Virus record (IMG/VR): IMGVR_UViG_3300005764_000017
Location: 1,483-65,482 of that record
Strand: one strand, 5' to 3'
DNA length: 64,000 nucleotides
Source of the DNA: a virus
Lineage: Duplodnaviria > Caudoviricetes
The position numbers and the translations under genes are program-made. Positions 16,238-32,375 of this stretch are shown one piece after another. Each line of letters begins with the position of its first letter. The first letter of the stretch is position 1. Under the pieces are notes generated by a model, which saw nothing but the letters and a program-made list of their open reading frames with translations, was not told the DNA's origin and ran no database searches.

Positions 16238-16515
16238 CCTCAGCCGTGATACCATCCCGCGCAAGGACGCACCCCAACAGACTCTGCGGAGGCCCCGCAG
16301 AGCGCCGGCCACCGGCTTGCGCCGCGCCGGAGAAACACCAGCGGGAGTAGTGCGCCCGTTTGAGCCCGCCGAAGGCTCCCCGATGCCCCACCGATGCCTC
16401 TTCGGCCGTCCCTGCCGCCGCTGGTGCTGGCGGACGCCGTTCTGCCGGCGCTGCTGGAGGCGGGTACGGGCGGCGCTGACCCCAATCCCCTGATCTCTCG
16501 CCCAGGAGCTCGCCC

Positions 16516-17475
16516 ATGCCTTTCGGATCCGGAGTCGAGCCGAAGATCCTCGACCAGCTCCTGGGTTGCGTCGTCGCCCAGTGCAACCAGGCCATTTCTG
16601 CCGGTACAACCGCACAGAGTTCGATCACGATCCGTGGTTCGGCGGGTTCCGGCAACGCCGACCACACGCCGGTCGTGGGGGAGTTCTGGCTCATCGCCAC
16701 CCCGGGCGCGGCCGGCTCCGAGAACCAGTACACGAACGTCGATGTCTTCCAGGTCTCAGGCTCGCCGACCGCGACGAGCCTGACGTTCGGGTCACGCACC
16801 GTGGTCGCGGCCCGTGCGGTCGGCGATGTGTGCTTCGTACTCAACACGACGACCGGAATTAGCGCATTCGGCAATGTGCCCCTGCTCCAGAAGGTCTTCG
16901 TGGGCCTGAGCACGACGGGCGCCCAGACCACGATAGCGGCGGGCTCCGACTTGGCCGCGTTGCCCCAGGGCACGATCAACGTGGCGAGCACGACGGGGTT
17001 CGCGGCGAGCGGGAACATCGTCATCGTCTCGCAGAAGGGCGAGCAGAACATCGCCTATACCGGCACTTCGGGCGGCACGCAGTTCACGGGCTGCACGGGC
17101 GGCACGGGCACCATCGACACCGGCGATGTGGTCTACCAGGTCCCGAGCGCAGCGACGATCCTGAGCAACGAACCGAGCAGCACCGGCAGCTACGCCAGGG
17201 CCTCAGTCGTGAACAGCGCCACCAACTTCGGAGCGGCGACCGGCACCTATCCCGCATCCAAGTCGAACGCGGCCACCGTCAGCTTCGCGCAGTCCACGGC
17301 GGCCTGGTCGTCGGGTGCGACGGCGCTGGACATCTTCTTCATCGCCGACAGCTCGACTCTCGCTGCTGGCAACGTCATCGGCTGGGGCTACCTGAGTCCA
17401 GCGCAGACGGTGAACGCCGCCAACATCACCCTGTCGTTCAGCTCCAGCTCGCTGGGGCCGATCACCCTGCTGTAG
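16516..17475 (+). CDS. virion structural (minor tail / fibre-associated) protein
   Basis: Ser/Thr/Gly-rich beta protein; C-terminal EPSSTGSYARASVVN...VSFAQSTAAW...GNVIGWGYL resembles a common phage minor tail domain. Confidence 0.65.
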   Translation: MPFGSGVEPKILDQLLGCVVAQCNQAISAGTTAQSSITIRGSAGSGNADHTPVVGEFWLIATPGAAGSENQYTNVDVFQVSGSPTATSLTFGSRTVVAARAVGDVCFVLNTTTGISAFGNVPLLQKVFVGLSTTGAQTTIAAGSDLAALPQGTINVASTTGFAASGNIVIVSQKGEQNIAYTGTSGGTQFTGCTGGTGTIDTGDVVYQVPSAATILSNEPSSTGSYARASVVNSATNFGAATGTYPASKSNAATVSFAQSTAAWSSGATALDIFFIADSSTLAAGNVIGWGYLSPAQTVNAANITLSFSSSSLGPITLL

Positions 17476-17486
17476 GAGGCCGGACG

Positions 17487-17783
17487 ATGCCCGCCTACAA
17501 CGATCGCGGCGCCCGCATCTCGCCGGCTGGAAACCAGCCGTACGACAGCGTCTACGCGCACAATCGCCTGCCAGCGCCGGACGATCCGGGCTGGGGCACG
17601 CATCGCCACAAGGCGAGCGGCAGCCTGGCGAGAGCCATCAGGGTCCATGGGCCCTTCGACTTCATCGGCGAGGCCGGCCAGGAGGAGCACTGCTCGGACG
17701 GCTGGATCGCTCTCGACACCGAGGGACGGCCCTTCGTGCTCCCGCTGGCGGTCTACGACGACCAGTTCGAGGTGGCTGAGTGA
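17487..17783 (+). CDS. hypothetical protein
   Basis: GGAGG RBS; FDFIGE...DGWIALDTEGRPF. Confidence 0.55.
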   Translation: MPAYNDRGARISPAGNQPYDSVYAHNRLPAPDDPGWGTHRHKASGSLARAIRVHGPFDFIGEAGQEEHCSDGWIALDTEGRPFVLPLAVYDDQFEVAE

Positions 17784-18514
17784 TCTGGGTTCCGAGTCCG
17801 TCGGATGCGCTGCGCTGGGAGCGCGAGTGGGAGCGCAGGGTCACATCCCCCATCGACCTCGAGCGGGAATGGACCCACCACTACGTCGCGGACCGTGGCC
17901 GGGTGCGCAAGGTGCCCATCGTCGGCGGCTCCTCGTGGTCGACCGGGATCCCCGTCGAGGCCATCTACTCCAACAGCGCGGCCGGGACGGCCAAGAACAC
18001 GTTCACGACCGAAGCGCAGATCAATGACTCGGCCGGCATGGGGTCGGTGGCCCAGCTCAACAGCCCGCTGCTGTGGGCCCCGGGCTTCAACCAGCCGAAG
18101 GCCACGCTGTTCGTCCGGGCCCGAGGGATCGTCTCCTCGACCTCCACGCCGACGTTCACGTGGACCATGCGCTTTGGTACGAGTTCGTCAGGAGCTCAGG
18201 TCGCGGGCACGGCGGCGCTGACGACGCTGACGACCATCAGCAACAAGGGCTGGGAGTTCGAGTGCGAAATCCAGCCGGTCACCCTCGCCGCCGCCGGCGC
18301 CAACTCGACCTTCCGCGGCGTCGGCCTGCTCAGCTCACCGGCGGGTCTGGCCTCGCCGGGCGTCTACGAGGTCTGGGGCGGCGGTGCGCAGCCGGGCACG
18401 GTGGCCACCGTCGACTGGAGCATCACGAACTCGATCTGGTTCGCCGCCGCCTGCTCGGCATCGAGCGCTTCGAACGGCATCACTCTGCTGCAGCTCATCA
18501 TCCTCGGCGCATAG
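17780..18514 (+). CDS. putative virion protein
   Basis: Ser/Thr/Ala-rich beta-sandwich-like composition within structural block. Confidence 0.55.
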   Translation: MIWVPSPSDALRWEREWERRVTSPIDLEREWTHHYVADRGRVRKVPIVGGSSWSTGIPVEAIYSNSAAGTAKNTFTTEAQINDSAGMGSVAQLNSPLLWAPGFNQPKATLFVRARGIVSSTSTPTFTWTMRFGTSSSGAQVAGTAALTTLTTISNKGWEFECEIQPVTLAAAGANSTFRGVGLLSSPAGLASPGVYEVWGGGAQPGTVATVDWSITNSIWFAAACSASSASNGITLLQLIILGA

Positions 18515-18522
18515 GAGACGAC

Positions 18523-18846
18523 ATGGCATTCGTGAACGCCGGCGGGATCGCACAGCTCAGCAAGGCGCAGTTCGACTCGCTCATGAACGGCTGCATCCAG
18601 AACCTGGACGGCGCGCTACTCCAGGCGCAGGCCATCCAGGCATTCTTCACGGCGCATCCGGATGCGGACTTCACGACGACGTCTGGAGCAGGTCCGATCA
18701 ACTACGCCTCCGGTGACGTCACCAACATGAAGAGCGCGTTCTCCGACTTGGACCAGCTCCGCACCATCTACCAGGGCTCGGCCACGCTGGGCACGGCCAA
18801 GGACTTCCGAACCTTCGCGAAGCTGATCGCCACGCTGGTGCACTAA
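18523..18846 (+). CDS. hypothetical protein
   Basis: GGAG RBS, structural block. Confidence 0.55.
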   Translation: MAFVNAGGIAQLSKAQFDSLMNGCIQNLDGALLQAQAIQAFFTAHPDADFTTTSGAGPINYASGDVTNMKSAFSDLDQLRTIYQGSATLGTAKDFRTFAKLIATLVH

Positions 18847-18869
18847 CCAGCCGCCCGTGAGGGGCTGAG

Positions 18870-21698
18870 ATGTCCACCACGATCTCAGCCGTAGCCGGCA
18901 CCACCGGCAGCGGCCTCGGCTCCGAACGGCACATCGCCTGGGCGCCGAACTCGCAGCTCTGGTGGGCGTTCGCCTACACGGGCACCAACGTCGTCTCCTC
19001 CTGGTACAGCTCGGACGGCTCGAGTTGGACGGCCGGCGCCACCCACACGCTGGCCCAGGCCCACAACAGCGAAGGCCGCAACCTGGCGGTCACCATCAAG
19101 TCGATCAGCTCGGTGGACTGCGTCCATATCGGGCTGATCTACAAGTCCGGAACCAGCCTGGGCGCCAACGCCCTGCGGGCCACTGTTTCCGGCACGACGC
19201 TCACCTACCACTCGTCGGACTCGACGGTTGCTTCGGCCACGGGCGATGGGGACGCGCTCTACTGGGCCGGGTCCGGCTTGGACCTGGACTCGAACAACAA
19301 GGTCCACTTCGCCAACGGCTGGAGCGCCGGCGGTAACGGCGACAGCAACTCGTCGGATTCCACGGCGGACGCGGGGACCGCCGAGCAGATGACGCCGGTG
19401 ACGTGGACGTCCCATGTCATCGACGCCGGCATCACCGCCGAGGTCCGCTCAGGCTGCATCGTCGATCTGGGCTCCAGCAAGGTCGGCTTCATCGCCGACG
19501 ACGGCCAGAACGCGAGCACCGCGACCGGGCTCAACTGGTACACGTGGTCAGGGTCGAGCTGGAACGTCGACCCTGGCAACCAGAAGGTGACCGGCGGCTC
19601 GGTGACCGCCTTTGACAAGAACGACTGGGGCGCGGTCGCGCTCTCGCCGACCAACATCCACGTCGTCTACCGCGACGGCGGCACCGGCGATCTCATCCAT
19701 CGGCGCTACGACGGCACTTCATGGGGCGCCGGCCAATCCCTCCCCGCGCAGTCCAACGTGGCGGGCGGCGGCGTGGCGCTCACTGCCGATGGCGCGTCGG
19801 TCTGGTGCGTCATCATCGACACCGACGGCGCCAACACGGTGCGGTCCTGCCAGTGGTCGGACCTGGCCCACAACCAGGTCGGCGACCAGTGGGGTAGCTG
19901 GCAGGTCGTCGAGGGCTCCAGCGCGACCAGGACGTTCGTCGGGGTGGCGCGCGACGTGGCGGCCAGCGTCGGACTCGCGTACTGGTCTGAGGGCTCCAAC
20001 CTCGTCGCCGCGGCGTTCGCGGCCTCCTCTCCGCCCGACCCTGGCTTCTACACCTGGATCCAGAGCAACCAGGGCAGCAGCAGCACTGCGGCCACCACGT
20101 TCGCGGTCGCGTTTTCGACGCAGAACATCGTCTCCGGCAACCGGATCATCGTCGCGATCAGCGAGTGGAACTCGACGGCGACGACGATCACCAGCGTCAC
20201 CGACTCAGCGGGCAACGCCTACCTCAAGGACAAGGACGCCGTCCTGAGCGACGGCACCCATGTCTCGATCTGGTCGGCGCCGATCACGGTCGGAGGCGGG
20301 ACCAAGCCCACCGTCACCGCCCATGCCTCGGCATCGACGTCCGAATGGGCGATGTGGGTCCACGAGTACTCGGGCGTCACGGCCGCCGCGGCGAACTATC
20401 TCGACGGCACTAACTCCTTCACGACCTCGGTCGCCTCCAGCCCCATCACCTCCGGGGCGTCGACCCCGGCGCCGGGAGCGGCCAACGAGCTCGCTTTCGG
20501 CTTCTACGGCGACGGCGGCAACAACATCGCCACCATCGGCGTTTCGGCCGGCTGGACGCAGCGGGGATCCTCGATCCAGGGCTCGAGCACCACCGCCGAA
20601 GGTGCCTGCTCCGACCAGGCGACCTCGGCCGGCACCGGCTCGAATGCCTCCTTCACGCTGAGCGGCACCGGCGCGCCAGGCGGTGTCCTGGTCGCGGTCT
20701 ACAAGCTGGCGGCTGTGCCCGGCGGCGGTGGACCGCCGGCGCTGGGGCGCACCCTTGGCCTGCGACCTGTCTGGCGCGGCCTGCGTCGCCCGATCCCATT
20801 CATGCCGGCGGCGCTCTCGTCGCTGTCCCCCGCCTGCGATCCGACTTCGAGCGCGGCGACCAGCTCCTGGACGGCCACTCTGACCGTCACCGTCGCCCTG
20901 TCGGGCACCAGCGCCGCCCGCAGCAGTCTCACGGCGGCGCCGAGCGAGGCGGTCGCCATCTCGGGCCCGGTCGCCGCCACCGCAGTCCTGAGTGGCGCCC
21001 AGAGCGCATCTGCCGCCCTGACTGGGGTGCTGGTCGCCACCAGCACGGAGATGGCCGCTCCGGCCCTCCAGGGCGCACTCAGCGGCCCGATCCAGGCGGT
21101 CTCAGCCGAGAGCGGCGCGCTCAGTGCCGCGGTCGCGCTGTCGGCGCCGGTAGCCGCCATGAGCGCGGCGACCGCGGTGACATCCTCGGCTGTCGCGCTC
21201 AGCGGACCGTTGGCCGGCGTCTCCGTCCTAACCGGCGCCCCGCAGGAAGCGATCAACGTCTCCGGTGCCCTGACGGCGATTCTGGTCCTCTCCGGGACCG
21301 CGACGACGGCAACTCCCGTGGCCGGGACCATCGCGGCGGTTTCGCGGTGGACGGGCGTCTCATCGCTCTCGGTGGGCCTGGCCGGCAACGCGAGCTCGGT
21401 GGCCGGGCTCACGGCCGGCGTCAGCACCACGGTCGGGATGACGGGGACGCTGGCCGGGGTTGGTGGGGCGTCGGGGGCGCTGAGCGCCTCGGTTGCGGTT
21501 GCGGTTGCGGGCTCGGTGGCGTCGGTCCTGGTGATGACCGGGACCCTCTCGACCGCCATACCGGGCACTGGCCCGGGGACCGTCAGCGCCTACCACACGG
21601 TCGCCTTCCGGGTGGGCGCGGTCGCCTCAGTTGCCTTCACCGTGGGCGCCTACGCCTCGCCGACGTTCCGCGTCGGCGCCTACGACTCCGTGGTCTGA
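18870..21698 (+). CDS. large multidomain virion protein (propeller-like N-terminus, beta-sandwich, Ala/Ser repeat tail)
   Basis: 942 aa; SSDGSSW/WSGSSW/YDGTSW BNR-like repeats; low-complexity A/S/V/G C-terminal third. Confidence 0.65.
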   Translation: MSTTISAVAGTTGSGLGSERHIAWAPNSQLWWAFAYTGTNVVSSWYSSDGSSWTAGATHTLAQAHNSEGRNLAVTIKSISSVDCVHIGLIYKSGTSLGANALRATVSGTTLTYHSSDSTVASATGDGDALYWAGSGLDLDSNNKVHFANGWSAGGNGDSNSSDSTADAGTAEQMTPVTWTSHVIDAGITAEVRSGCIVDLGSSKVGFIADDGQNASTATGLNWYTWSGSSWNVDPGNQKVTGGSVTAFDKNDWGAVALSPTNIHVVYRDGGTGDLIHRRYDGTSWGAGQSLPAQSNVAGGGVALTADGASVWCVIIDTDGANTVRSCQWSDLAHNQVGDQWGSWQVVEGSSATRTFVGVARDVAASVGLAYWSEGSNLVAAAFAASSPPDPGFYTWIQSNQGSSSTAATTFAVAFSTQNIVSGNRIIVAISEWNSTATTITSVTDSAGNAYLKDKDAVLSDGTHVSIWSAPITVGGGTKPTVTAHASASTSEWAMWVHEYSGVTAAAANYLDGTNSFTTSVASSPITSGASTPAPGAANELAFGFYGDGGNNIATIGVSAGWTQRGSSIQGSSTTAEGACSDQATSAGTGSNASFTLSGTGAPGGVLVAVYKLAAVPGGGGPPALGRTLGLRPVWRGLRRPIPFMPAALSSLSPACDPTSSAATSSWTATLTVTVALSGTSAARSSLTAAPSEAVAISGPVAATAVLSGAQSASAALTGVLVATSTEMAAPALQGALSGPIQAVSAESGALSAAVALSAPVAAMSAATAVTSSAVALSGPLAGVSVLTGAPQEAINVSGALTAILVLSGTATTATPVAGTIAAVSRWTGVSSLSVGLAGNASSVAGLTAGVSTTVGMTGTLAGVGGASGALSASVAVAVAGSVASVLVMTGTLSTAIPGTGPGTVSAYHTVAFRVGAVASVAFTVGAYASPTFRVGAYDSVV

Positions 21699-21707
21699 GG
21701 AGGCCGC

Positions 21708-22010
21708 ATGGCGTACTACGTCGGCGAGGCGATCGCGCTCTCGAACTGGACGGGCCCCTCGGCGACCCCCACCGGCGGCTACCGTAACGCCTCCGGCACG
21801 CTCTACGACCCGACCACTCCGACCCTGCGCTACAGGCTGCCCGGCCAGACGGTGACCAGCGTCAGCGGCGGCTCGCTGACCAAGGACGGCACTGGCCTCT
21901 ACCACCAGATCGTGACCCCAACCGCCGACGGCGTCATCGTCGGCGCCTGGCTCAGCAACGACGGCGCCTACCAGCCCTTCACCATCGACGTCCAGCCGGC
22001 CCCCATCTGA
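21708..22010 (+). CDS. small virion protein (Ig/BppU-like)
   Basis: LYDPTTPTLRYRLPG...KDGTGLYHQIVTP pattern. Confidence 0.5.
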   Translation: MAYYVGEAIALSNWTGPSATPTGGYRNASGTLYDPTTPTLRYRLPGQTVTSVSGGSLTKDGTGLYHQIVTPTADGVIVGAWLSNDGAYQPFTIDVQPAPI

Positions 22011-22020
22011 GGAGACAGCC

Positions 22021-23262
22021 ATGCTCGACATGCGCGCCCGCCCAGCCGAGGCGCTTCCGACCGCGCCCCCGGAGGCCGTGCTGCGCAAGGGCTACCTGCC
22101 GCCGGACGTCAACCTCGGGAACTCGGACCTCCGCTTCCACATTAACGAGTTCCCCCTAGGCGGGATCGAGAACTACAGCGTGGCCCGCGCGGCCTACGCG
22201 ATGGCCCAGGCCAAGCAGGGTCGCTCCCTCGCCTGGCAGAAGTACGCGCCCTGGGAGCACGCCTACCAGCAGGCCCTGACGAAGGCGATGGGCGACCAGG
22301 TGAGCGGCCTCGACGGCGCCTACCTGGCGCCGGAGCAGTGGGGAACGCGCCTATTCGACCTCCTGCGCTCGTTCTCGGCGCTCGACCAGCTGCCGATCAC
22401 CCGCGTCCGGGTGCCGGTCCGCATCCTGCGGCTGCCGAAGATCAGCGGCGACATCACCATCCAGTACCCCGGCGAGAACGCGCAGATCACCGCCTCGCAG
22501 TACTCGTTCGGCCAGCTCAGCTACAACGCCCACAAGGCGAACGCGCTCTACAACGAGTCCAACGAGCTGTTCCGCGATGCCCCGGAGGTGATCGACCAGG
22601 CGCTACAGCTCTCGGCGTCCCGGGCCATCGCGACCGACCGGGACACTCAGTTGCTCACGGGCGCCGGCGGCCCGAAGCCGACCGGCATCACGACGCTGGC
22701 GACGGCGGGTACGGTGGCGAAGTACTTCCCGCCGGCCTCGGCGTCAGGCTCGCTGCAGACTACGGCGAACCACAACACCCCGAGCTTCAACCACATGAGC
22801 CAGCTCAGGGGCAAGGTCACGAGCCTCAACGGCAACTCGAACGTCACCGCCGGCCAGGCGCAGTGCGACGGCATCGTCGTCCACTCCCGCTTCGAGCAGA
22901 CCGTGATGACTCTGGGTACCGCGGCCGGGTCCTGGACGGACAGCCAGGGCCGTCCGCTCTGGGTCATGGGCCTCAACGGCGAGTCGTCCGACCCGCAGAC
23001 GGGTCTCCTGGGCATGAAGTGGGCGCTCTCGAACGTCCTGCCGACCAACTCGACGGACGGCGGCGGCACGGCCTCGAGCTACGCCATCGCTGGCTGGTGG
23101 GCGCAGTACGTGCTGTTCGAGTGCACGGCCTTCACGTTCGAGGCGACGCCGTTCGCCCAGGGGTTCGCGTCCGACCAGACGCAGGTCAGGATCACATACC
23201 GCTTCGACGGGGGCCCTGCACATCCCGAGTCGTTTGCGGTTTTGGCGGGGGTGGACCAGTGA
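22021..23262 (+). CDS. HK97-fold major capsid protein paralog (copy A)
   Basis: KAMGDQVSGLDGAYLAPEQW, PGENAQIT, ESNELFRDA, SDQTQVRITYRFDGGPAHPESFAVL; aligns with 32376-33893. Confidence 0.85.
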   Translation: MLDMRARPAEALPTAPPEAVLRKGYLPPDVNLGNSDLRFHINEFPLGGIENYSVARAAYAMAQAKQGRSLAWQKYAPWEHAYQQALTKAMGDQVSGLDGAYLAPEQWGTRLFDLLRSFSALDQLPITRVRVPVRILRLPKISGDITIQYPGENAQITASQYSFGQLSYNAHKANALYNESNELFRDAPEVIDQALQLSASRAIATDRDTQLLTGAGGPKPTGITTLATAGTVAKYFPPASASGSLQTTANHNTPSFNHMSQLRGKVTSLNGNSNVTAGQAQCDGIVVHSRFEQTVMTLGTAAGSWTDSQGRPLWVMGLNGESSDPQTGLLGMKWALSNVLPTNSTDGGGTASSYAIAGWWAQYVLFECTAFTFEATPFAQGFASDQTQVRITYRFDGGPAHPESFAVLAGVDQ

Positions 23263-23678
23263 GCGACCTTCCCGAGGTCCGGCTGGCATCCTGCGGCCAC
23301 GGCTTCCTCCCCCTCGATGTGCCTCCGGCCGCGGTCATGCAGAACGGCATGCACCAGGTGCAGGTGTACCTCTGCGACGACTGTCGCCAGCGGCTGAACG
23401 CGCGGAAGGTGGAGACGAAGCCGGGGCCTGCGGTCGTGCGGAAGATGCAGTACGAGCTGCCGAGGAATCCAGAGCTTGAAGCCGACGAGCCACCGCCCAT
23501 GGACCTCGCCTCCGACCTCAGCCCCTACGCCAAGGGCGCCAAGGTGGCGCGCGACGGCGGCGCCGAGGAGGACTGCCCGTTCTCCGACCGGCGGACGAAG
23601 GACGCCAAGGAGTGGCTGAGGGGGTTCCGGGAGGAGTTCGAGCGGCGGAACGCTCATGGCGACCGAACGGACGCCTGA
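23259..23678 (+). CDS. hypothetical protein
   Basis: CGH...CDDC; C-terminal CPFSD...EWLRGF motif. Confidence 0.55.
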   Translation: MSDLPEVRLASCGHGFLPLDVPPAAVMQNGMHQVQVYLCDDCRQRLNARKVETKPGPAVVRKMQYELPRNPELEADEPPPMDLASDLSPYAKGAKVARDGGAEEDCPFSDRRTKDAKEWLRGFREEFERRNAHGDRTDA

Positions 23679-24105
23679 CCCGAAGAAGGGGGTCCACGGC
23701 AACCCCGGCCAACTGCCCTGGCAGGAGGACCCGGACATCCTCGCCCGGATGCAGGAAGGGGCCCGCCTGCGCTCCCACGGCCTTACCGCGCCCGAGATCG
23801 CGCTTAAGCTGGGCATCGGTCGCACCCAGGTCTTCGAGGACCGCAACCGCCTCCTGGAACTCCGCAAGGAGGAGGCCAAAGATGCCGTCCAGCACCACAT
23901 CGAGAACCTCCAGCAGCAGGCGGCCGAGATCCGACAGGCACTCGCCAGCACCGACACCCGGAGCCTGAACGTCGGCCAGCTCCGCGGCCTGCTGAGGCAG
24001 ATCGAGATGGACATCGCCAAGCTCGACGGCAGCCTGATCGAGCGGAAGGAGACCAAGCTCGAGGCGGACGGCGTGACGTTCACGCTGAACCTGACGGGGC
24101 AGTAG
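23656..24105 (+). CDS. putative terminase small subunit
   Basis: N-terminal HTH (GLTAPEIALKLGIGRTQVFED), coiled coil, immediately upstream of TerL. Confidence 0.7.
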   Translation: MATERTPDPKKGVHGNPGQLPWQEDPDILARMQEGARLRSHGLTAPEIALKLGIGRTQVFEDRNRLLELRKEEAKDAVQHHIENLQQQAAEIRQALASTDTRSLNVGQLRGLLRQIEMDIAKLDGSLIERKETKLEADGVTFTLNLTGQ

Positions 24106-25409
24106 TGGCGACCGCCACCTACAACCGCCCGGCCATCTACCCCCGCCAGCGCGAGTTCATCGACGCCCCCGAGCGCTACGCTGTCATCGAGGCGGCGACC
24201 AAGGCCGGGAAGACGGTCGGATGCATCGTCTGGATCGTCGAGAAGGCGCTGGCCGGGAAGCAGGGCCAGGACTTCTGGTGGGTGGCCCCGGTCTACCCAC
24301 AGGCCGAGATCGCGTTCAAGCGCCTGAAGCGCTACCTGCCGCGGTCGGTCTACAAGGCCAACGAGTCCAAGCTGGCGGTCGAACTCGCGAACGGCGCCAC
24401 GATCACCTTCAAGTCCGGCGAGAAGCCGGACAACCTCTACGGCGAGGACGTCTACGCCGCCGTCATCGACGAGGCCACCCGCGTCCGCGAGGAGGCGTGG
24501 CACGCGCTGAGGTCAACCCTGACGGCGACCCAGGGCCCGGTCCGGATCATCGGCAACGTCAAGGGCCGGCGGAACTGGGCCTACAAGATGGCGCGCCAGG
24601 CCGAGCAGGGCATGCCGGGCATGCGCCACTACAAGATCACCGCCTACGACGCGGCTGACGGCCTCGCCGAGATGAAGGCTGCGGGCCTCATCCCCGAGAC
24701 GGCCAACGTCGTCACTCTCGACGAGATCGAAGACGCCCGGCGCCAGCTCCCCGAGCACGTCTTCCGCGAGCTGTACCTCGCCGAGCCGAGCGACGACGAG
24801 GGGAACCCGTTCGGCCTCCAGGCCATCCGCGACTGCATCGAGCCGATCTCGACGGCTGACCCGGTCGCGTGGGGATGGGACCTCGCCAAGCACCACGACT
24901 GGACGGTGGGGGTGGCGCTCGACGCGCAGTGCCGCGTCTGCCGCTTCGAGCGGTGGCAGGCCACGTGGCGAGCGACAGTCGCCGACATCCGGCATATCAC
25001 GCGCGGCGTACCGGCGCTCGTGGATTCCACCGGCGTCGGCGACCCCGTGCTCGAGCAGCTCCAGGCCAACGGCGGCGGCAACTTCGCCGGCTTCCACTTC
25101 AACCAGACGAGCAAGCAGCAGCTCATGGAGGGCTTGGCGCTCGCCATCCACCAGCGGGAGATCGCGTTCCCCGAGGGTCAGCTCACCAACGAGTTGATGG
25201 CCTTCGAGTATGTGGTTCGGACGCTGAACGGTCGGGTGACCGGCGTGCAGTACGCGGCGCCAGAGGGGATGTACGACGACGCGGTGTGCGGCCTCGCCCT
25301 GGCCCGGGAACAGTGGCTGAGCCAGGGCCGCGGCGCCCTGCTGGTGGCCACGGTGGAGGGCGCGGACGAGGACCCGACGGGGTTCTGGGCGTCGTTCGAC
25401 GACGAGTGA
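24105..25409 (+). CDS. terL: terminase large subunit
   Basis: AATKAGKT Walker A, VIDEA Walker B, GWDLAKHHDWT, VDSTGVGD, YDDAVCGLALA. Confidence 0.95.
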   Translation: MATATYNRPAIYPRQREFIDAPERYAVIEAATKAGKTVGCIVWIVEKALAGKQGQDFWWVAPVYPQAEIAFKRLKRYLPRSVYKANESKLAVELANGATITFKSGEKPDNLYGEDVYAAVIDEATRVREEAWHALRSTLTATQGPVRIIGNVKGRRNWAYKMARQAEQGMPGMRHYKITAYDAADGLAEMKAAGLIPETANVVTLDEIEDARRQLPEHVFRELYLAEPSDDEGNPFGLQAIRDCIEPISTADPVAWGWDLAKHHDWTVGVALDAQCRVCRFERWQATWRATVADIRHITRGVPALVDSTGVGDPVLEQLQANGGGNFAGFHFNQTSKQQLMEGLALAIHQREIAFPEGQLTNELMAFEYVVRTLNGRVTGVQYAAPEGMYDDAVCGLALAREQWLSQGRGALLVATVEGADEDPTGFWASFDDE

Positions 25410-25419
25410 GGAGGGAGCG

Positions 25420-25575
25420 GTGAGCTTCGGCCTGACCGTGACGCTCGACTGGTGGCAGTGGTTGCTGATGGTGTTCGGCGCCGGCTTCTGCTGGGCGGCC
25501 GGAGCAGCCCTCGGCGGCGCGTTCGTGCGCGCGCTGGGTGCCATGTTTTCGCAGCGACGGCAGCCGCCGGGGTAG
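25420..25575 (+). CDS. small membrane protein
   Basis: GGAGGGAG RBS; hydrophobic 51-aa ORF. Confidence 0.5.
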   Translation: MSFGLTVTLDWWQWLLMVFGAGFCWAAGAALGGAFVRALGAMFSQRRQPPG

Positions 25576-25585
25576 GGTTGGCGCG

Positions 25586-25957
25586 ATGGCGCTGATGTAC
25601 GACGGCGACCGGATCACGTTCACCAGACGCTTCCCGAGCTTCTCGTACTTCGTCACGGCCGAGCACGAGGTCAAGGTGCTGGAGTACGAGGACCATCTGG
25701 AGGTCTGGAGGGCGGACCGCCGGGGCCGATGGCGCCGGCGCAAGACCCTGCCGACCGAGTTGGCGAAGTACTTCTCGGTCCTCGACAAGTACGAGGTCAA
25801 GGTGGGGCCAGCCGACGAAGACTGGAAGTCGCCACTGCCGTCCGCGTGGAGCGGTGTCGACGCTGGCCCTGTCTGCGATCCGGCGTTCATGCCCCGCGAG
25901 TCGAATCCGACGGTGCGGATCAGCACGGAAGACGGCGAAGTCATCTGGAGCGCCTGA
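25586..25957 (+). CDS. hypothetical protein
   Basis: ORF with typical codon usage between TerL and portal. Confidence 0.5.
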   Translation: MALMYDGDRITFTRRFPSFSYFVTAEHEVKVLEYEDHLEVWRADRRGRWRRRKTLPTELAKYFSVLDKYEVKVGPADEDWKSPLPSAWSGVDAGPVCDPAFMPRESNPTVRISTEDGEVIWSA

Positions 25958-26263
25958 CCCCCCTCCTCGACTGGCTCTGGCACCGCGCCGCGGTCCTGGC
26001 CGCCGGCTACCTCGTGGCGGGCTGGCGCGGGATGCTGGCGGTGATGGTGGCGCGGGAGGTCGTCGGGCTAGTGCTTGCGGGGGTAGGTCGGTGGGCCGAG
26101 GCGCCGGGCCCAGCGCGCCCACGCGTACAGGACCAGCCCGACCGGTAGCCCGTAGATAACGAGCGCCCTCAGCCACAGCGGGCCAGCCTCGCCGAGCGCG
26201 ACGAGCACCCAGAACGACCAGTCCATGGCGCTCAGTATGCGGCGCCCCCACACGGAGCCGCCC

Positions 26264-29200
26264 ATGGCGATAGCCCGTCCCACCCTGCGCTCTCGCGCGG
26301 TCGCCGCCGTGAGGGCCTTCACGGGACAGCCGCCGACCCTGAAGGACATCTGGGGCCAGGGCTGGCGCGACTTCATGGGCATCGGCTCGGGCTCGGGCGG
26401 TGCCGGCGTCCAGGAGTACAACGACCAGCCCGACGACTTCAACCGCGCCTACTCCGCCGAGAGCTACGCGTTCACGGCCGAGCAGACCCGCCTGAAGGCC
26501 GTCCGCCAGGTCCCGCTGAAGGTCTGGCAGACCGACGCTCAGGGCAACCGCAAGGCGATCGACCACGACGCGCTCGCCGTGCTGGACCAGACCAACCCAT
26601 ATGGGTACGTGGCCGGCATCCCGGCGCTGATGAGCTACACGCTCTGGTCACTCGACTTCCACGGCCGCAACGCCTGGCGGTTCGCGTTCAGTCGATCCAA
26701 GCAGCCGACCGAAATCTACTGGCAGCTCCCGACCACGTACACGCCGCTCCCGGACGAGTCGAAGCCCATGCGGACGCTGGGCGGTATCCGGATGCACAAC
26801 GGCCAGACCATCCCGGCCGAGGAGTTGGCCTACTACGCGACGGTCAGCCCGTCCGACCCGCTGCTCGGCCTCAGCAAGATCAAGGTTCTGAAGGACGCGC
26901 TCAATCTGCGCGCCTACAGCCAGGCCAACAACATCGCGTTCTTCCTGAACTCGATGCGGCCGGACTGGATCCTGAGCGGGTCGTGGTCGAACACCGAGGA
27001 CAACATCAACCGCATCCGGCGGGCCATCCGGCGAATGCTCTCCGGAGCCAACAACCGGGCCCCGCTCATCCTCGGCGAAGGGGCGACCGCCCACTTGCTG
27101 ACGACCTCACACGAGGATGCGCAGTGGGTCCAGCAGATGCGGATGGTGCAGGAGGAGGTGTCAGCGGCGTTCGGGGTACCGCTCGTGTACCTCAACAACC
27201 TCGAGCGGATGACGTACGACAACGTCAAGACCGCCAAGCTGATCCTCTGGCACGACACGATGATCCCGGAGTGCGACGAACTGGCGCGCTTCCTGGACCT
27301 CCAGTTCCTGTGGCGCTTCTGGCCCGGCACCCGCGAGTCGCGCATCGCGTTCGGGTTCGACTACGACGAGATCGAGGGGCTTGGCGAAGACCTCGCGCTG
27401 ATCTGGGAGCGGGCGATGAAGCTCCTCGCCCAGGTCGACCAGCAGGTTCGCTATCGCCAGCTCACTCCGAACCAGGCCCGAGTCCTCTACGCCAAGGTGC
27501 TCGCCGACTTGGGCCTGGACCCGTCGCCGTACACGGGCGACGTCCCGATGGGCGACACGTTCCTCGAGCAGTTCCAGTACGTCCCCGTCGACCAGCTGAG
27601 CGTCCAGACGGTCATGGATGTCTGGGCGATGCGTGGCCAGAACCCCGAGTTCGTCGAGAGCGTCCCGGGGGCCGAGAACGCCGGCACGAACGCCGACGCG
27701 GTCGCCGAGCGGCTGAACAAGCCACCCGAGCCGCCGCAGCTTCCTCCCGGCGCCCCGCCGGGTGCGCTGCCGCCCGGACCTGGTAGCCAGCCGCCTGCTG
27801 CACCGCCCGCGCCGGCCCCGAAGCCTGCGGCCGACCCGCAGAAGGCTGTCGACCCGGATGCACTACGCGCCGAGATCGTGGCCGACATCCGAGGGGAGAT
27901 CGAGAAGGCTGTCGGCAAGGCTGCGGTGGACGCATTCGGCCGCGAACTCCAGGCGCAGCAGCAGCGGGCCTCGGACTCGGAGCGGAAGCGGCGAGCACTT
28001 CGGCGCTACTTCCAAGACCAGAAGACCGACGTGCTCCGCACGATGCGCCAGGCCAAGGGTGAGCTCCCGTCCGACCTCTACAGCCGGGGCGTCTACCGCG
28101 GACGACTCGAGGAGCTGGTCGGCGAAGAGGTTGCGGATCACGTCGAGCGGGAGACGCAGCAGGCGCTGAAGGCGGCCGTGTCCGGCGGCACCTCTGCCGT
28201 GGTCGCGCTGTACCAGGACGCCATCGACCGGCGGGCGGATGAGATCGCGGCCAAGGCGTACAGCCCGGAGACGGAGCCGCGCGACCCCAAGCACATGCAC
28301 GACTACGGGCAGAACCAGAAGCCCGTGCTCAGCTTCGACCTGCACCACACGCTGACGCTCGACGCTGGCTTCCCGCTCGTCTCGCCGCCGTTCCCCGGGG
28401 TGCGTCAGTTCCTGAACCTGATGGCGGCGCGAGGGTGCTGCGTGCACATCTCCACGGCCAGCCTCGACGAGACGGACCCGGACATCTGCAAGGTCCGGAA
28501 GTCACAGATCGAGGACTGGTGCGCAAGGTACGGGCTTCCGGTCTCCTATGTCTGTTCGAATTCCCACGCCGATGTCCGGGTGGACGACCGCGGCATCAAT
28601 GTGCCGAAGGATCCCGACTGGGGCTCTATCGCGGCGGTCGCGGAGCTGCAGCTCGGCGCGACCCACGAACTCGATGAGGATGGACAGTACGCGCGCCGGA
28701 AGGATCTGGCCCCGGTCGGCGAGCGGCGCGAGACCTGGCCCAAGCTGTCGAGCGTCCCGGCCGACCGGCCGCGCGGCTTCTCGACGCCGATGGTGGACAT
28801 CGATGTCCATCGGACGCTGGACCCGGCGTGGGGCACCGGCCGTGTCCCTCAGGCACCGGACCCGCAGGCGGTCGCCATCGTCCGCGGGCTCTACGAGGCT
28901 GGCTACCAGATCCAGTTCTCGTGCGCCGGCTGGAATCCGGCACTCGACGTGGACGGCGGCGGCCCAGACCGCCTGGCCGGCATCGTCCAGTACCTGCTGA
29001 CGTACGACATCCCGTACGACCGGGTGGTCTCGAAGGATGACTACGACGTCCGCTTCGACGACAAAGCGATCCCGTTCACCACGTGGCCGGAGGTGCGAGC
29101 GGCCGTGCTCGCGAAGGTCGGCCCGCCGCGAGCGAAGGGCCAGCCGCCCCCTTTCGTCAAGGCGGCCGGTGAGCCGCCGCCCGTCGCCAGCCGGTACCTA

Positions 29201-29959
29201 CACGAGCCGATCACGCGAGCGGAGGATCACTACGCCGACCGGGTGAGGGCGGCGCTCCATCAGGGACTGGACGCTCAGGTCGTCGCGAGCGACTGGCTGA
29301 TGCGGCAGATGAGCTCGAAGGCCGCGGCCCGGCCGATGCCGGACCTGGTCCAGTCGGCGCTGAGCTGGCTGCAGAGCCTCGGGCTCAGCTTCGCCGCCCT
29401 GGTCGACGTCCTGCACGGCGTCTACCGCGACGGCTGGACGCTGGGACGCGCGGCCGCGCAGCGGGCCGCAGACGCGAAGGGGTTTGACTTCCCGCCGCCG
29501 GACAGCGGTATCGACTGGTCCGCCTGGCAGCCTGGCAGCGAGCTGGCCGCCGAGGAGGCCCTGGGGCTGAAGGAGCTGCTCCAGGACGTCGATATCACCA
29601 TCCAGGGCGTCAACGACACGACGCTGGAGGAGATCGCGTCCCGCCTGGCGACCGGCGCCGCCAACGGCGACTCGGTGGCCACCATCGCGGACTCGCTGGA
29701 GGAGTTCTTCGACGGCAGCCGCGCCGAGGCCATCGCCCACACCGAGCTCAACCGGGCGATGTCGGCGTCCAGCCTGTCCACCTACCTGGAGAACGGCATC
29801 CCGGCGAAGTCGTGGATGGTGTGGCAGCCCTGTCCGATCTGTGCCGAGAACGCGGCGGCAGGCGTCATCCCGGTCGACCAAAGCTTCCCGAGCGGCGACA
29901 AGGCGCCGCCGGCGCACCCTCGCTGCCGGTGCTCGATCGTCCCGGATCGGTTGTCCTGA
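26264..29959 (+). CDS. portal protein fused to two HAD-like domains and a MuF (SPP1 gp7) domain
   Basis: HK97 portal (GLSKIKVL, FFLNSMRP, VSAAFGVPLVYL, TYDNVKTA); FDLHHTL..DVRVDDR and DIDVHRTL..DVRFDDK; MuF end AEAIAHTE..CPIC..PPAHPRCRC. Alternative start 26225. Confidence 0.85.
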   Translation: MAIARPTLRSRAVAAVRAFTGQPPTLKDIWGQGWRDFMGIGSGSGGAGVQEYNDQPDDFNRAYSAESYAFTAEQTRLKAVRQVPLKVWQTDAQGNRKAIDHDALAVLDQTNPYGYVAGIPALMSYTLWSLDFHGRNAWRFAFSRSKQPTEIYWQLPTTYTPLPDESKPMRTLGGIRMHNGQTIPAEELAYYATVSPSDPLLGLSKIKVLKDALNLRAYSQANNIAFFLNSMRPDWILSGSWSNTEDNINRIRRAIRRMLSGANNRAPLILGEGATAHLLTTSHEDAQWVQQMRMVQEEVSAAFGVPLVYLNNLERMTYDNVKTAKLILWHDTMIPECDELARFLDLQFLWRFWPGTRESRIAFGFDYDEIEGLGEDLALIWERAMKLLAQVDQQVRYRQLTPNQARVLYAKVLADLGLDPSPYTGDVPMGDTFLEQFQYVPVDQLSVQTVMDVWAMRGQNPEFVESVPGAENAGTNADAVAERLNKPPEPPQLPPGAPPGALPPGPGSQPPAAPPAPAPKPAADPQKAVDPDALRAEIVADIRGEIEKAVGKAAVDAFGRELQAQQQRASDSERKRRALRRYFQDQKTDVLRTMRQAKGELPSDLYSRGVYRGRLEELVGEEVADHVERETQQALKAAVSGGTSAVVALYQDAIDRRADEIAAKAYSPETEPRDPKHMHDYGQNQKPVLSFDLHHTLTLDAGFPLVSPPFPGVRQFLNLMAARGCCVHISTASLDETDPDICKVRKSQIEDWCARYGLPVSYVCSNSHADVRVDDRGINVPKDPDWGSIAAVAELQLGATHELDEDGQYARRKDLAPVGERRETWPKLSSVPADRPRGFSTPMVDIDVHRTLDPAWGTGRVPQAPDPQAVAIVRGLYEAGYQIQFSCAGWNPALDVDGGGPDRLAGIVQYLLTYDIPYDRVVSKDDYDVRFDDKAIPFTTWPEVRAAVLAKVGPPRAKGQPPPFVKAAGEPPPVASRYLHEPITRAEDHYADRVRAALHQGLDAQVVASDWLMRQMSSKAAARPMPDLVQSALSWLQSLGLSFAALVDVLHGVYRDGWTLGRAAAQRAADAKGFDFPPPDSGIDWSAWQPGSELAAEEALGLKELLQDVDITIQGVNDTTLEEIASRLATGAANGDSVATIADSLEEFFDGSRAEAIAHTELNRAMSASSLSTYLENGIPAKSWMVWQPCPICAENAAAGVIPVDQSFPSGDKAPPAHPRCRCSIVPDRLS

Positions 29960-30071: not shown

Positions 30072-30575
30072 GTGAAGGTCGTCGTCCCCTACGTCCACCT
30101 CCACCCGGCCACGGTGGCGGCGCTCGAGCGGGACGGCATCGAAGCCCGCTATGTGGACGTCTCGTCCGACGTCGAGGACGCCTGGCAGCTCCTGGCTGAG
30201 TGCTGGGCAGCGGGCGAGGGCTTCGCGGTCGTCGAGCAGGACAAGGTCCCGGCACCGGGCGCGCTGCCAGCGCTCATCGACTGCCCCGAGCGCTGGTGCG
30301 CCTACCCGGTGTCGATGCAGAGCGGGACGTACGCCGGCTTCCCGACGCTCTCCTGCGCCAAGTTCGCGGGCGACCTCATGGCCCGCTGGCCGGACCTGAT
30401 GAACCACGTGGGGGGGACGTTCATGGGCGTGCTCGGTGGCCAGTCCATCACCGGCCGGCACTACGCCCGCCTCGACATGGCCGTCGCGCTCTGGGTGGCG
30501 CGCCGGAGCGGACCCGTTCACTGGCACCCGGCCGGCATGGTCGAGCACCTTCACCAATCCGAGGAGTCGTCATGA
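30072..30575 (+). CDS. small GT-A-like glycosyltransferase
   Basis: VVVPY, FAVVEQDKVP, CPERWCAY, LSCAKF; paralogous to middle domain of 34632-36443. Confidence 0.6.
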   Translation: MKVVVPYVHLHPATVAALERDGIEARYVDVSSDVEDAWQLLAECWAAGEGFAVVEQDKVPAPGALPALIDCPERWCAYPVSMQSGTYAGFPTLSCAKFAGDLMARWPDLMNHVGGTFMGVLGGQSITGRHYARLDMAVALWVARRSGPVHWHPAGMVEHLHQSEESS

Positions 30576-32335
30576 TCCGCAAGAGCTTCGCGGTGCTGCC
30601 CGGCACGACCAAGGTGCTCGATGCCGACCAGGGCATCGTGGAGGGATGGGTAAACAGCACGGCCGTGGTGGACGCCCAGCGGGACATCATGGAGCCCGGC
30701 TGCTGGGCAGACGTCTGCAAGGCGGCGACCGACGGGAAGGTCGCGCACCCCTCGACCGTCTGGGGCCATGACTGGAACATCACCACGGGCAAGGTCCTCA
30801 GCGCCCAGGAGTACGCGCCCGGCTCGCCCGAGATCCCCGACGAGATCCGTGAGATGGGCGCCGGGTCGGTCAAGATCCGGGCGCAGTACAACCTGGAGAC
30901 CCAACGCGGCCGGGAGGCGTTCTCCGACGTCAAGTTCGGCGCCATCCGCCAGTGGTCGGTCGGCTTCCTGCCCGACGAGTCCACCATCCGCTACGACTCC
31001 AAAGGTGTCCGTCACATCGGCAAGGTCGCCGAGTGGCCGGAGGTCTCGAACGTGCTCATGGGCGCGTCCCCGGGCACCATGACGGCCTCGGTGAAGGCCA
31101 CTCCGGCCGAGGGCCGCAAGGAGCGCACCGCGGACCGGCTGGCACGGGCTCGGGCCATGGTGGAGGCGTTCAAGGCCGAGTGGTCGACGGCCTTCATCAA
31201 CAAGCTCCCCGACTCGGCGTTCGCCTACATCGAGCCGGGCGGGAAGAAGGACGACGACGGCCGGACGACACCGCGGTCGCTCCGACACTTCCCGCACCAC
31301 GGCGAGGACGGCGGCGTCGACCTCCCCCACCTCCGCAACGCGCTCTCTCGCGCGGCGCAGGAGGCTGCGGAGTTCGGCGACAAGGCCCTACCCCACCTGG
31401 AGAAGCACGCCAAGGCCGAGGGCATCGGCGACGACGACGGGAAGGCTGTCGCGCAGGCTGGGCAGAAGGCAGGCCACAGCCACTATCACGTCCACCCCGA
31501 CGGCACCGCGCACACGCGCGCGCGCGCCCACGGCCCGGACGTCGCAGCTCACGACGGGCCCGCCGAGAAGGTCCCCCATCAGCACGGCCACGCACCCGCA
31601 GGGGAGCCGGACACCGCAGAGCCGAAGGCGGCGATGTGCTGCGACGACTGCAAGGGCCAGGACTGCCCCGGCTGCTGCGACGCCTGCTGCCACGGAGCCG
31701 CGAAAGCGGCCAAGGCAGGCGGCGGACTGCCCGGCGACCCGCCCGGGGTGCCGTACATGACCGGCGACGAGGCTCAGCACAACGGCCCGCTGCTGCAGGT
31801 GCTGGACGGCATCAACACGCTCATCGCCCAGGAGATCGGCGAGGGCGGCTACACCGAGTATCAGGACATCATCCGGCTCTGCTGCCTCGCCCAGGACGCC
31901 ATCTCGTGGGCGGCTGGCGAGGCGAACGAGTACGGCGATATGGGCATGTACTCGATCTGGGACCTCTTCGCCGCCGGGAGGGAGGCGCTGAGCTCCAAGA
32001 CCGAGGCCGAGAAGGCGGCGGCGCTCATCGAGCAGGCCGCCGTCGAGGGACGCCTCCCCGCCTGGCTGAAGGCGGCAATCACGGCAATCTCCGAGGCCCC
32101 GCCGACGTCATCTCACCACCCCAATCCTGCACAGGGCGAAGGTGACGGCCTCGACTGGGAAGGGCGCTTCGTGGACGGCTTCGCCGGTCACTCGCTGGGG
32201 CTGCACTTGTGGCTCCAGAACGACTTGCGCGGAGAGCACGAGCCCAAGCGCACGCCCGTGGACCCAGAGGCACTGGACGGGCCGCCCGCCGAATGGACGG
32301 ACCGATTCACGAGCCCCTGGCGTCAGCAGCAGTAG
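30572..32335 (+). CDS. HK97-type prohead protease with long C-terminal extension
   Basis: VEGWVNSTAVVDAQRDIM, VWGHDW, QWSVGF, WPEVSNVLMGASP; then LPDSAFAY..RHFPHH domain, His-rich and Cys-rich segments. Confidence 0.85.
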   Translation: MIRKSFAVLPGTTKVLDADQGIVEGWVNSTAVVDAQRDIMEPGCWADVCKAATDGKVAHPSTVWGHDWNITTGKVLSAQEYAPGSPEIPDEIREMGAGSVKIRAQYNLETQRGREAFSDVKFGAIRQWSVGFLPDESTIRYDSKGVRHIGKVAEWPEVSNVLMGASPGTMTASVKATPAEGRKERTADRLARARAMVEAFKAEWSTAFINKLPDSAFAYIEPGGKKDDDGRTTPRSLRHFPHHGEDGGVDLPHLRNALSRAAQEAAEFGDKALPHLEKHAKAEGIGDDDGKAVAQAGQKAGHSHYHVHPDGTAHTRARAHGPDVAAHDGPAEKVPHQHGHAPAGEPDTAEPKAAMCCDDCKGQDCPGCCDACCHGAAKAAKAGGGLPGDPPGVPYMTGDEAQHNGPLLQVLDGINTLIAQEIGEGGYTEYQDIIRLCCLAQDAISWAAGEANEYGDMGMYSIWDLFAAGREALSSKTEAEKAAALIEQAAVEGRLPAWLKAAITAISEAPPTSSHHPNPAQGEGDGLDWEGRFVDGFAGHSLGLHLWLQNDLRGEHEPKRTPVDPEALDGPPAEWTDRFTSPWRQQQ

Positions 32336-32375
32336 CCCGCCGGCCAGGCCGGCACGTCACGACAGGAGACCCACC

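Follow-up and report, generated by a model that had tools for sequence, protein, structure and literature searches.

A second HK97-fold capsid protein, McpA, is encoded alongside the canonical major capsid protein, McpB, in the 64,000-nucleotide stretch of phage DNA analysed here (the window). By sequence and predicted fold McpA is a member of the HK97-fold capsid family, and comparison with its relatives indicates an old, constrained duplicate that is neither a relic nor an optional spare. For its function we favour, with about an even chance of being right, a second structural subunit of the shell, probably the vertex pentamer. The source phage is uncultured, has a high GC content and comes from soil. 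The two capsid genes are:

22021..23262, + strand: mcpA, second HK97-fold capsid protein, 413 aa (PF05065, PHROG 10)
32376..33893, + strand: mcpB, canonical major capsid protein, 505 aa (PF05065 at 4.2e-31)

The reading frame of mcpA is open and intact over all 413 aa (GC3 0.94), and a GAGGAG sequence is located 6 nt upstream of the ATG, which bears out the preliminary description of a gene with its own ribosome-binding site and no frameshift. The protein matched the whole Pfam model PF05065 (Phage_capsid) with an E-value of 5.5e-27 (95.3 bits at a cut-off of 24.2, model positions 1-278 of 280) and PHROG 10 ('major head protein') with 4.8e-22; McpB scored 108.8 bits against PF05065. In an AF2 model of McpA (pLDDT 76, pTM 0.73) the HK97 fold is complete, with N-arm helices, E-loop hairpin, spine helix and the sheets of the A- and P-domains. 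The helices and strands of the axial domain are all there, and the domain is not reduced. Foldseek searches returned a probability of 1.00 to the capsids of HK97, D3, GTA, T5 and others, all top structural matches in PDB and BFVD were capsid proteins, and a profile search of the PDB found only distant HK97/GTA-type capsids. Fold and Pfam family are thus shared with HK97 gp5 and other single-protein capsids (PDB 1OHG, D3 9OUS, RcGTA 6TB9), but these use one protein for pentons and hexons, whereas here two diverged copies are kept. Two other identities were considered and rejected: an encapsulin, as PF05065 is the sole Pfam match and mcpA is flanked by genes for an Ig-like protein, a small RMF-like protein and TerS, and a Tat-exported copy, as McpA has no twin-arginine signal.

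A BLASTP comparison aligned the whole mature region of McpA with McpB (37 % identity over 426 columns, E-value 3e-65), and the profiles of the two families matched with an E-value of 1e-101 in hhalign. The full-length relationship of 22021-23262 to the canonical capsid protein, as first proposed, is therefore upheld, and all three motif pairs quoted in its favour were found. The start of the canonical protein itself had to be corrected, since it is the ATG at 32376 (505 aa) and not the start of the longer open reading frame at 32142. McpB, whose family comprises at least 65 proteins, consists of an N-terminal helix, a TDPxTRPGF motif, a linker and the mature region; in its AF2 model a helix at residues 19-42 precedes the HK97 fold. 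McpA lacks this N-terminal helix/propeptide (about 98 residues including helix 19-42 and TDPxTRPGF), in agreement with the shorter N-terminus noted before, while the mature regions are similar in size (about 390 aa in McpA, about 408 aa in McpB). Deeper A-type proteins retain an N-terminal remnant, a helix of about 25 aa with the pattern FPxxYVxxLRxExAxYR, which is absent from the subclade of the window. The region present in McpB and missing from McpA would most likely be a scaffold or delta region.

The two proteins have not diverged evenly. At positions conserved among A-type proteins, B most often has the identical residue in the N-arm (72 %) and P-domain (64 %), and less often in the E-loop (45 %) and axial domain (37 %). 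Retained N-arm and P-domain and a diverged axial domain are as predicted for two proteins that co-assemble in one lattice with different axial symmetry; the axial domain is generally the most variable part of capsid proteins, so this pattern is suggestive only. We infer that McpA is incorporated into the virion and takes a pentameric position. An old duplication of an HK97-type capsid gene would have given rise to mcpA, which would have specialised since. The protein would be made from the late gene string, just upstream of the terminase genes, and would co-assemble with McpB via the N-arm and P-domain surfaces still common to both. Most likely it would form the pentamers of the eleven five-fold vertices without a portal, and McpB the hexamers.

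Could McpA build a shell of its own, such as a second type of particle, a small form of the capsid or a compartment resembling an encapsulin? In favour of this, McpA is complete as a capsid protein and has no long propeptide, and its deeper relatives have their own short scaffold-like N-terminal helix. However, no second portal, protease, scaffold or cargo gene lies nearby, the match is to PF05065 and not to the encapsulin family, the interface motifs common to both proteins argue for a joint lattice, and co-divergence with McpB, described below, would be needless for an independent shell. We give this explanation only a slight chance, and to the second particle type raised in the preliminary description nothing points.

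The A family comprises about 63 metagenomic proteins with 42-84 % identity to McpA, and its alignment contains 40 invariant and 47 nearly invariant columns. In the phylogenetic tree the A proteins form a single clade (SH-aLRT 99) whose stem is long (0.63) and whose internal branch lengths resemble those of B. In a sister lineage, second copies form a separate 'X' clade that is apparently of independent origin. Since dS was saturated (2-48) in the maximum-likelihood estimates of dN/dS, NG86 values were used and are read relative to mcpB: at similar divergence they were 0.44 and 0.60 for A and 0.29 and 0.46 for B. Relaxed selection, which had been named beforehand, together with absence from virions, as what would refute the proposed role of mcpA, was thus not seen; its dN/dS resembles that of mcpB and the two genes diverge together.

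Ten A/B pairs have longest contigs of equal length (69221, 12069, 47090, 43865, 8128, 67125, 27977, 36704, 12686 and 66999 bp), which implies that both genes reside on one genome in each case; co-residence is here derived from the equal bp values and not from the DNA of the contigs. Pairwise identities of A and B were correlated over nine pairs (r = 0.71) with means of 54 % for A and 61 % for B, and A appears to evolve only slightly faster than B and in step with it. Within a contig, A and B are 35-42 % identical. One discordant pair, P0046/P0033, has A proteins with 47 % identity and B partners with 85 %, which indicates that the A gene is exchangeable between phages. Long B-type contigs of 53049, 47588, 41151, 72668 and 96321 bp have no A-type partner in the lists, and mcpA may therefore not be universal among B-carrying phages, or A partners may have been missed.

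Such exchange between otherwise similar phages would also fit an intracellular capsid look-alike, e.g. a decoy for host defence sensors or an assembly poison against competitors, and mcpA borders non-structural genes in two deeper loci (a phosphatase gene in L003, a dNMP kinase gene in L016). The decoys that we know of are fragments or change fast, and this counts against the idea. McpA is neither truncated nor patchy in its presence: no assembly element is missing from the full-length protein, a deep clade has retained it over an identity range of 84 % to 42 % and its occurrence is not sporadic, and it evolves only slightly faster than McpB, with which it keeps step. It also has the same N-arm and P-domain motifs as McpB, and within the late gene string its gene is coupled to that of TerS. 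We therefore regard a look-alike as unlikely.

Relatives of this system were found only in metagenomes. Neither megablast with the block nor tblastn with McpA (at 1e-5) gave a match among 50,697 phage records, and McpB gave only matches of 21-29 % identity, the best of them Rhodobacter phage RcapNL with 26 %. Scans of genome contigs detected no prophage relative, and no cultured relative was found. A scan of viral contigs with the A family yielded one A-type contig (L003) and distant single-capsid-protein contigs, a scan with the portal returned nothing close, and the records behind L004, L005 and L006 are short fragments only. The TerL scan matched at least 560 contigs, but related capsid genes were present in none of the 80 loci kept, which makes TerL a mosaic module that is of no use for tracing the lineage.

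Phage genomes are mosaic, and a TerL common to hundreds of otherwise unrelated viral contigs could be taken as a sign that mcpA is a functionless remnant from a time when two related phages recombined, or a chimera created by the assembly. This is very unlikely, and we rank it below all other explanations: independent contigs of different sample origin (L011, L013, L025, L012, L003 and L016) show the same arrangement, homologues with as little as 42 % identity still have an open frame, with 40 positions invariant, and dN/dS resembles that of mcpB.

Downstream of mcpA, the window contains the packaging and head genes up to mcpB:

23259..23678, + strand: small gene with Cys motifs and an RMF-like C-terminus, 139 aa (PF04957 at E 4.7e-5, below the cut-off)
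23656..24105, + strand: TerS, small terminase (HTH and coiled-coil sequence)
24105..25409, + strand: TerL, large terminase (Pfam Terminase_6C and Terminase_6N; PHROG 2 at 2.3e-29)
26225..29959, + strand: portal-MuF fusion (PF04860 at 2.9e-36, PF04233 at 2.4e-7)
30200..32335, + strand: prohead protease (S78) with a long C-terminal extension (PF04586 at 1.9e-7, PHROG 80 at 6.6e-20)

The 139-aa gene overlaps both of its neighbours, by a GTGA at the mcpA stop and by 23 nt at TerS, which indicates that mcpA is translationally coupled to the packaging genes. The claim that mcpA lies outside the head and tail operon could thus not be maintained; it is part of the late gene string. No promoter or terminator was found on the + strand between positions 13000 and 27000 of the window. 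The N-terminus of the 139-aa protein matches L011:11141-11488, homologues of TerS with 83 % identity lie directly upstream of TerL in L013 and L025, and a PHROG 4044 TerS is found at the equivalent place in more distant A-type loci. At every locus examined (L011, L013, L025, L003, L016 and L012) mcpA adjoins packaging genes, five times upstream of TerS and once in the order TerL-mcpA-portal. An insertion by a satellite or island was rejected, as several contigs show mcpA colinear with, and coupled to, the TerS of the phage itself. The distance between mcpA and mcpB is about 9 kb (23262 to 32376), with TerS, TerL, portal and protease in between. Two observations speak against a vertex protein, namely that McpA is not reduced and that its gene is not adjacent to the main capsid gene as in T4 and Jabs.

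The constant position beside TerS, or between TerL and portal, could also mean that McpA occupies shell positions other than the pentons, forming a subset of hexamers, mixed capsomers or a ring around the portal. All evidence for a structural role applies equally to this arrangement, McpA is as large as McpB with an unreduced axial domain, and a role at the packaging vertex would then account for the linkage to TerS, TerL and portal. Yet gene position alone is weak evidence for function, the two solved cases of dual capsid proteins are penton/hexon splits, and we know of no precedent for hexamer-subtype or portal-ring capsid paralogues in HK97-fold phages; a non-penton position therefore appears rather improbable. 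Similarly small is the probability we assign to a packaging-linked subunit that evolved repeatedly in uncultured phages, for example a ring that seats portal and terminase or a protein that sets head size, although it would explain both why mcpA neighbours TerS, TerL and portal and not the main capsid gene, and the apparently independent 'X' clade of second copies.

The vertex-paralogue idea of the preliminary description finds partial support in the complete fold of McpA, its age and conservation, its co-residence and co-divergence with McpB, the short propeptide and the common N-arm and P-domain motifs. To our knowledge, heads built from two HK97-fold proteins were long known from T4-like phages only. 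In T4, gp24 forms the vertex pentamers and gp23 the hexamers, and both are essential parts of the shell. Like McpA, gp24 has diverged from the major capsid protein, its paralogue, and its propeptide is much shorter. T4 differs in that it is a myovirus, its head is prolate, and genes 23 and 24 lie next to each other after protease and scaffold; the gp23/gp24 sequence family is unrelated to McpA and McpB and has an independent origin.

The Mycobacterium abscessus siphophage Jabs likewise has a pair of HK97-fold capsid proteins encoded in its genome, MCPh (ORF72) and MCPp (ORF73), the main protein with a long N-terminal region and the second one without. Its head has T=9 geometry with hexons of MCPh and 11 pentons of MCPp, a dual-protein strategy called unprecedented among icosahedral phages in the 2026 cryo-EM preprint (bioRxiv 10.64898/2026.07.24.740622). 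The genomes are comparable in size, if the 67-69 kb contigs found here are near complete. However, no sequence relationship to McpA was found, the MCPh and MCPp genes are adjacent and not 9 kb apart with the second gene upstream of TerS, and MCPp has 257 aa with a reduced axial domain, whereas McpA is as large as mature McpB. Cluster B mycobacteriophages are siphophages with a high GC content, T=9 heads and genomes of about 67 kb (67,480 bp and 68.9 % GC in Rosebush). They carry genes annotated as 'major capsid hexamer protein' and 'major capsid pentamer protein' (PMC10893344, PMC7150772; annotation: PMC10893344). This Rosebush group resembles our case in having two capsid proteins in a high-GC phage, but has a different gene order and no detectable sequence similarity to McpA.

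McpA hence has two traits of vertex paralogues, being a diverged paralogue in the same genome with a shorter or absent N-terminal propeptide, and lacks two others, the adjacency to the main capsid gene and the reduced axial domain of Jabs. As a vertex protein it would be analogous to T4 gp24, Jabs MCPp and the cluster B pentamer protein but of independent origin, and the likeness would be one of function and not of family, common descent not being apparent. The lineage, about ten related metagenomic phages, represents an independent, old and stably kept capsid duplication, unrelated to T4-like phages or Jabs, in which the second capsid gene has been relocated to the end of the operon that holds the packaging genes. 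If McpA is a vertex protein, dual-protein heads would be recurrent and recognisable in metagenomes from sequence alone, and the paired A and B families (about 60 proteins each) would be a data set for residues that distinguish five-fold from six-fold positions. If it is not in the virion, it would be a well-conserved full-length capsid mimic, which would be new in another way.

Upstream of mcpA, the preliminary description had counted five fibre-like or Ser/Thr-rich genes, but missed the one at 18523-18846; the block contains six open reading frames:

16516..17475, + strand: g16516, Ala/Thr/Ser/Gly-rich, 319 aa, first of the block (GC3 0.88)
17487..17783, + strand: g17487, 98 aa (AGGAGG ribosome-binding site, GC3 0.88)
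17780..18514, + strand: g17780, Ser/Thr/Ala-rich, 244 aa (GC3 0.91)
18523..18846, + strand: helical protein, 107 aa (AGGAG before the ATG, GC3 0.88)
18870..21698, + strand: g18870, 942 aa (BNR/sialidase-like beta-propeller N-terminus, Ala/Ser/Gly repeat region, conserved C-terminus)
21708..22010, + strand: g21708, Ig-like beta-sandwich by ESM Atlas look-alikes, 100 aa, directly upstream of mcpA

The label 'fibre-like' is supported only in part, by g18870 and g21708, whose fold calls are based on ESM Atlas look-alikes only: g16516, g17487 and g17780 had no match in Pfam or PHROG, the 107-aa protein had none in PHROG, and g16516 has no homologue in L011. A head-fibre module anchored by McpA is not borne out, as the gene upstream of mcpA in deeper relatives is a phosphatase (L003), a dNMP kinase (L016) or TerL (L012). 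Only two unassigned proteins lie between tape measure and lysin, so the large upstream proteins could equally be tail fibres. The sequence of g18870 contains SxDxGxxW motifs, its look-alikes include BNR_4 (TM 0.73 by target), and no tandem DNA repeats were found under its repeat region. Its conserved C-terminal 42 aa, with three (F/Y)RVGAY units, are the only part shared with L011:8520-9620. It is likely a virion fibre or spike, on head or tail. The Ig-like g21708 groups with small viral Ig-like proteins, and the same fold occurs fused to head-tail connectors, making it a candidate surface or decoration protein of the virion. Among the upstream genes it is the sole travelling companion of mcpA, in the near subclade only: homologues lie beside mcpA in L011 (86 % identity) and L013 (46 %), and several of the twelve homologues are on contigs that also have mcpA.

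The window, with a G+C content of about 69% and nearly all genes on the + strand, takes up 64 kb of an IMG/VR virus record 65.5 kb long. Assignment by Pfam and PHROGs resulted in the following gene order:

Early genes: YqaJ exonuclease, RNase T-like exonuclease and C5 methylase
8620-10014, early region: integrase
10405-12894, early region: primase/helicase
16516-22010: block of six genes without family assignment
22021-23262: mcpA, the second capsid gene
23259-23678: gene for a 139-aa protein
23656-24105: small terminase (TerS)
24105-25409: large terminase (TerL)
26225-29959: portal-MuF fusion
30200-32335: S78 protease
32376-33893: mcpB, the canonical major capsid gene
Between mcpB and tail tube: glycosyltransferase/methyltransferase and sugar nucleotidyltransferase
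39580-40767: tail tube
42458-44968: tape measure
After the tape measure: two large tail proteins without assignment, then a GH25 lysin
After the lysin: Ro60

The phage is a temperate siphophage. Nucleotide and protein searches of 50,697 phage records returned no cultured relative, and no prophage relative was found among 185,579 species genomes. TerL (24105-25409) has at least 560 relatives in IMG/VR at 54-61% identity; in the 80 loci kept (L031-L110) these adjoin unrelated capsid genes, which reads as a clear case of module mosaicism.

The preliminary description had proposed a second capsid paralog at 22021-23262, and this was confirmed apart from minor points. The mcpA product matches the full PF05065 model (5.5e-27), is 37% identical to that of mcpB across the whole mature region (E 3e-65) and is predicted by AF2 to adopt a complete HK97 fold (pLDDT 76, pTM 0.73), with capsid proteins throughout as the best PDB and viral-model matches. 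The gene has, as described, its own ribosome-binding site (GAGGAG) and an uninterrupted 413-aa frame without frameshift (GC3 0.94), and all motif pairs quoted for the two capsid proteins were found in their sequences. Profile-profile comparison of the A-type and B-type families, i.e. the database relatives of mcpA and mcpB, gave an E-value of 1e-101 across 382 columns. The true start of mcpB is the ATG at 32376 (505 aa), and the shorter N-terminus reported for mcpA holds, about 98 N-terminal mcpB residues being absent from it. AF2 modelled the mcpB N-terminus as a helix (residues 19-42) followed by a disordered linker with a conserved TDPxTRPGF motif. Deeper A-type proteins have a short N-terminal helix, FPxxYVxxLRxExAxYR, of a type often present in phage scaffold regions; it is lost in the window's subclade.

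Searching 5.8 billion proteins yielded 63 mcpA relatives at 42-84% identity, all nearer to mcpA than mcpB is, and in an alignment of 23 of the 63, 40 columns are invariant and 47 nearly so. The separate mcpB family comprises at least 65 proteins. The A-type proteins form a single clade (support 99) both with FastTree and under an IQ-TREE mixture model. A long stem of 0.63 changes per site leads to it from the unresolved base of the B-type lineages, and branch lengths inside the clade resemble those of B. Such a tree shape would be expected if a single old duplication had been followed by a phase of rapid change and then by constraint.

Co-residence of both types was scored by equal size of the carrying contigs. 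Ten A/B pairs were obtained in this way (69221, 12069, 47090, 43865, 8128, 67125, 27977, 36704, 12686 and 66999), an agreement very unlikely to arise by chance; several long B-type contigs had no A-type partner among the proteins listed. For nine pairs, A and B pairwise identities correlate (r = 0.71), with A diverging slightly faster (mean identity 54% vs 61% for B), and A-to-B identity inside one contig is steady at 35-42%. With dS saturated, NG86 dN/dS was 0.44 and 0.60 for mcpA (at 70% and 55% amino-acid identity) compared with 0.29 and 0.46 for mcpB (at 79% and 65%), and therefore the relaxed selection that had been named as an argument against a capsid role is not seen. By these measures mcpA behaves like a core structural gene; that it is a functionless relic is hardly credible.

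Between the P0046/P0084 and P0033/P0086 pairs, the B-type proteins share 85% identity, against just 47% for the A-type partners, which suggests an exchange of the A gene among related phages. P0118 and P0119 (681-683 aa) represent one sublineage whose B-type protein is joined to the S78 prohead protease; the A-type partners P0062 and P0132 remain separate proteins. P0131 and P0134-P0136 form a distinct capsid-paralogue clade, sister to a basal B-type lineage, and P0134 shares an equal contig size (14,624) with the B-type P0127; this clade may represent a second, independent capsid-gene duplication in related phages. Among the B-type proteins in the database there are several fragments, 47-323 aa long. 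An insert of about 360-380 nt (L006:2365-2727) splits the mcpB homologue of L006, whose head module is closely related to that of the window, exactly within the most conserved motif (VSG|QDGGFLAPE). The insert carries a short EndoVII/HNH-like remnant ORF and may be a mobile intron; an Rfam search assigned it to no intron family.

Contrary to the preliminary description, mcpA does not lie outside the string of late genes. One small, previously unannotated gene (23259-23678, 139 aa) overlaps both the mcpA stop codon (GTGA) and the TerS start. Its product contains CxxH...CxxC motifs and a C-terminus resembling ribosome modulation factor (PF04957, E 4.7e-5, below the cut-off), and its N-terminus matches L011:11141-11488. 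Small PHROG 20473 proteins occupy the same slot before TerS in L011 and L016, a likeness of position. Across the related metagenomic loci compared, packaging genes are the constant neighbours of mcpA:

L011: fibre-like C-terminus, Ig-like gene (86%), mcpA (68%), two small genes, TerS
L013: Ig-like gene (46%), mcpA, TerS, TerL
L025: mcpA, TerS, TerL
L003: phosphatase, mcpA, small ORF, TerS
L016: dNMP kinase, mcpA, small ORFs, TerS
L012: TerS, TerL, mcpA, HNH endonuclease (L012:3915-4469), portal

The favoured reading, to which we give about an even chance, is that mcpA would provide a second structural subunit of the head shell, located at the vertices. Positions at least 80% conserved within the A clade were checked for the same residue in B. 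The proportion with an identical residue was highest in the N-arm (72%), followed by the P-domain (64%), the E-loop (45%) and the axial domain (37%). Contacts between capsomers are made by the subunit periphery, and a shared periphery with an axis region that has diverged in each clade fits two proteins in one lattice on different symmetry axes. Because axial domains generally vary more than any other part of capsid proteins, we count this pattern as supportive only. A place in the shell but away from the vertices, for example around the portal, seems unlikely, an intracellular capsid mimic equally so, and a separate shell formed by mcpA very unlikely.

In T4, hexamers consist of gp23 and eleven vertices of its paralogue gp24. 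The siphophage Jabs builds a T=9 head from MCPh hexons and MCPp pentons, an arrangement that its 2026 preprint terms unprecedented among icosahedral phages (bioRxiv 10.64898/2026.07.24.740622). Annotations of cluster B mycobacteriophages name hexamer and pentamer capsid proteins (PMC10893344), and the head of Rosebush (67.5 kb, 68.9% GC) is of T=9 type (PMC10893344, PMC7150772). The window shares with these systems a same-genome paralogue with a shortened propeptide. In contrast to them, there is no detectable common descent, the two genes stand 9 kb apart and mcpA is not reduced in size, so we do not file it in any known vertex-protein family. Most likely, mcpA would work like a vertex protein without belonging to such a family.

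The block upstream of mcpA consists of six genes, not five, and the proposed head-fibre module found no support. Conservation of the block ends with the Ig-like gene, itself limited to the near subclade, and nothing ties the two candidate appendage proteins to head over tail. One, g18870 (18870..21698, 942 aa), has a BNR/sialidase-like propeller according to a sequence motif and ESM Atlas look-alikes; the other, g21708 (21708..22010, 100 aa), is an Ig-like sandwich whose look-alikes also occur fused to head-tail connectors. Both are plausible virion surface proteins, on head or tail alike, and between tape measure and lysin there are only two unassigned proteins. The last 42 residues of g18870 (21573-21698) comprise three (F/Y)RVGAY units and are 62% identical to the C-terminus (L011:9492-9617) of a 366-aa Arg-rich repeat protein that is unrelated elsewhere; the stretch resembles a conserved anchor at the C-terminus of variable bodies. 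The block's first gene has its start codon within an imperfect inverted repeat at 16501-16565 (29-nt arms, 72% complementary, 7-nt gap).
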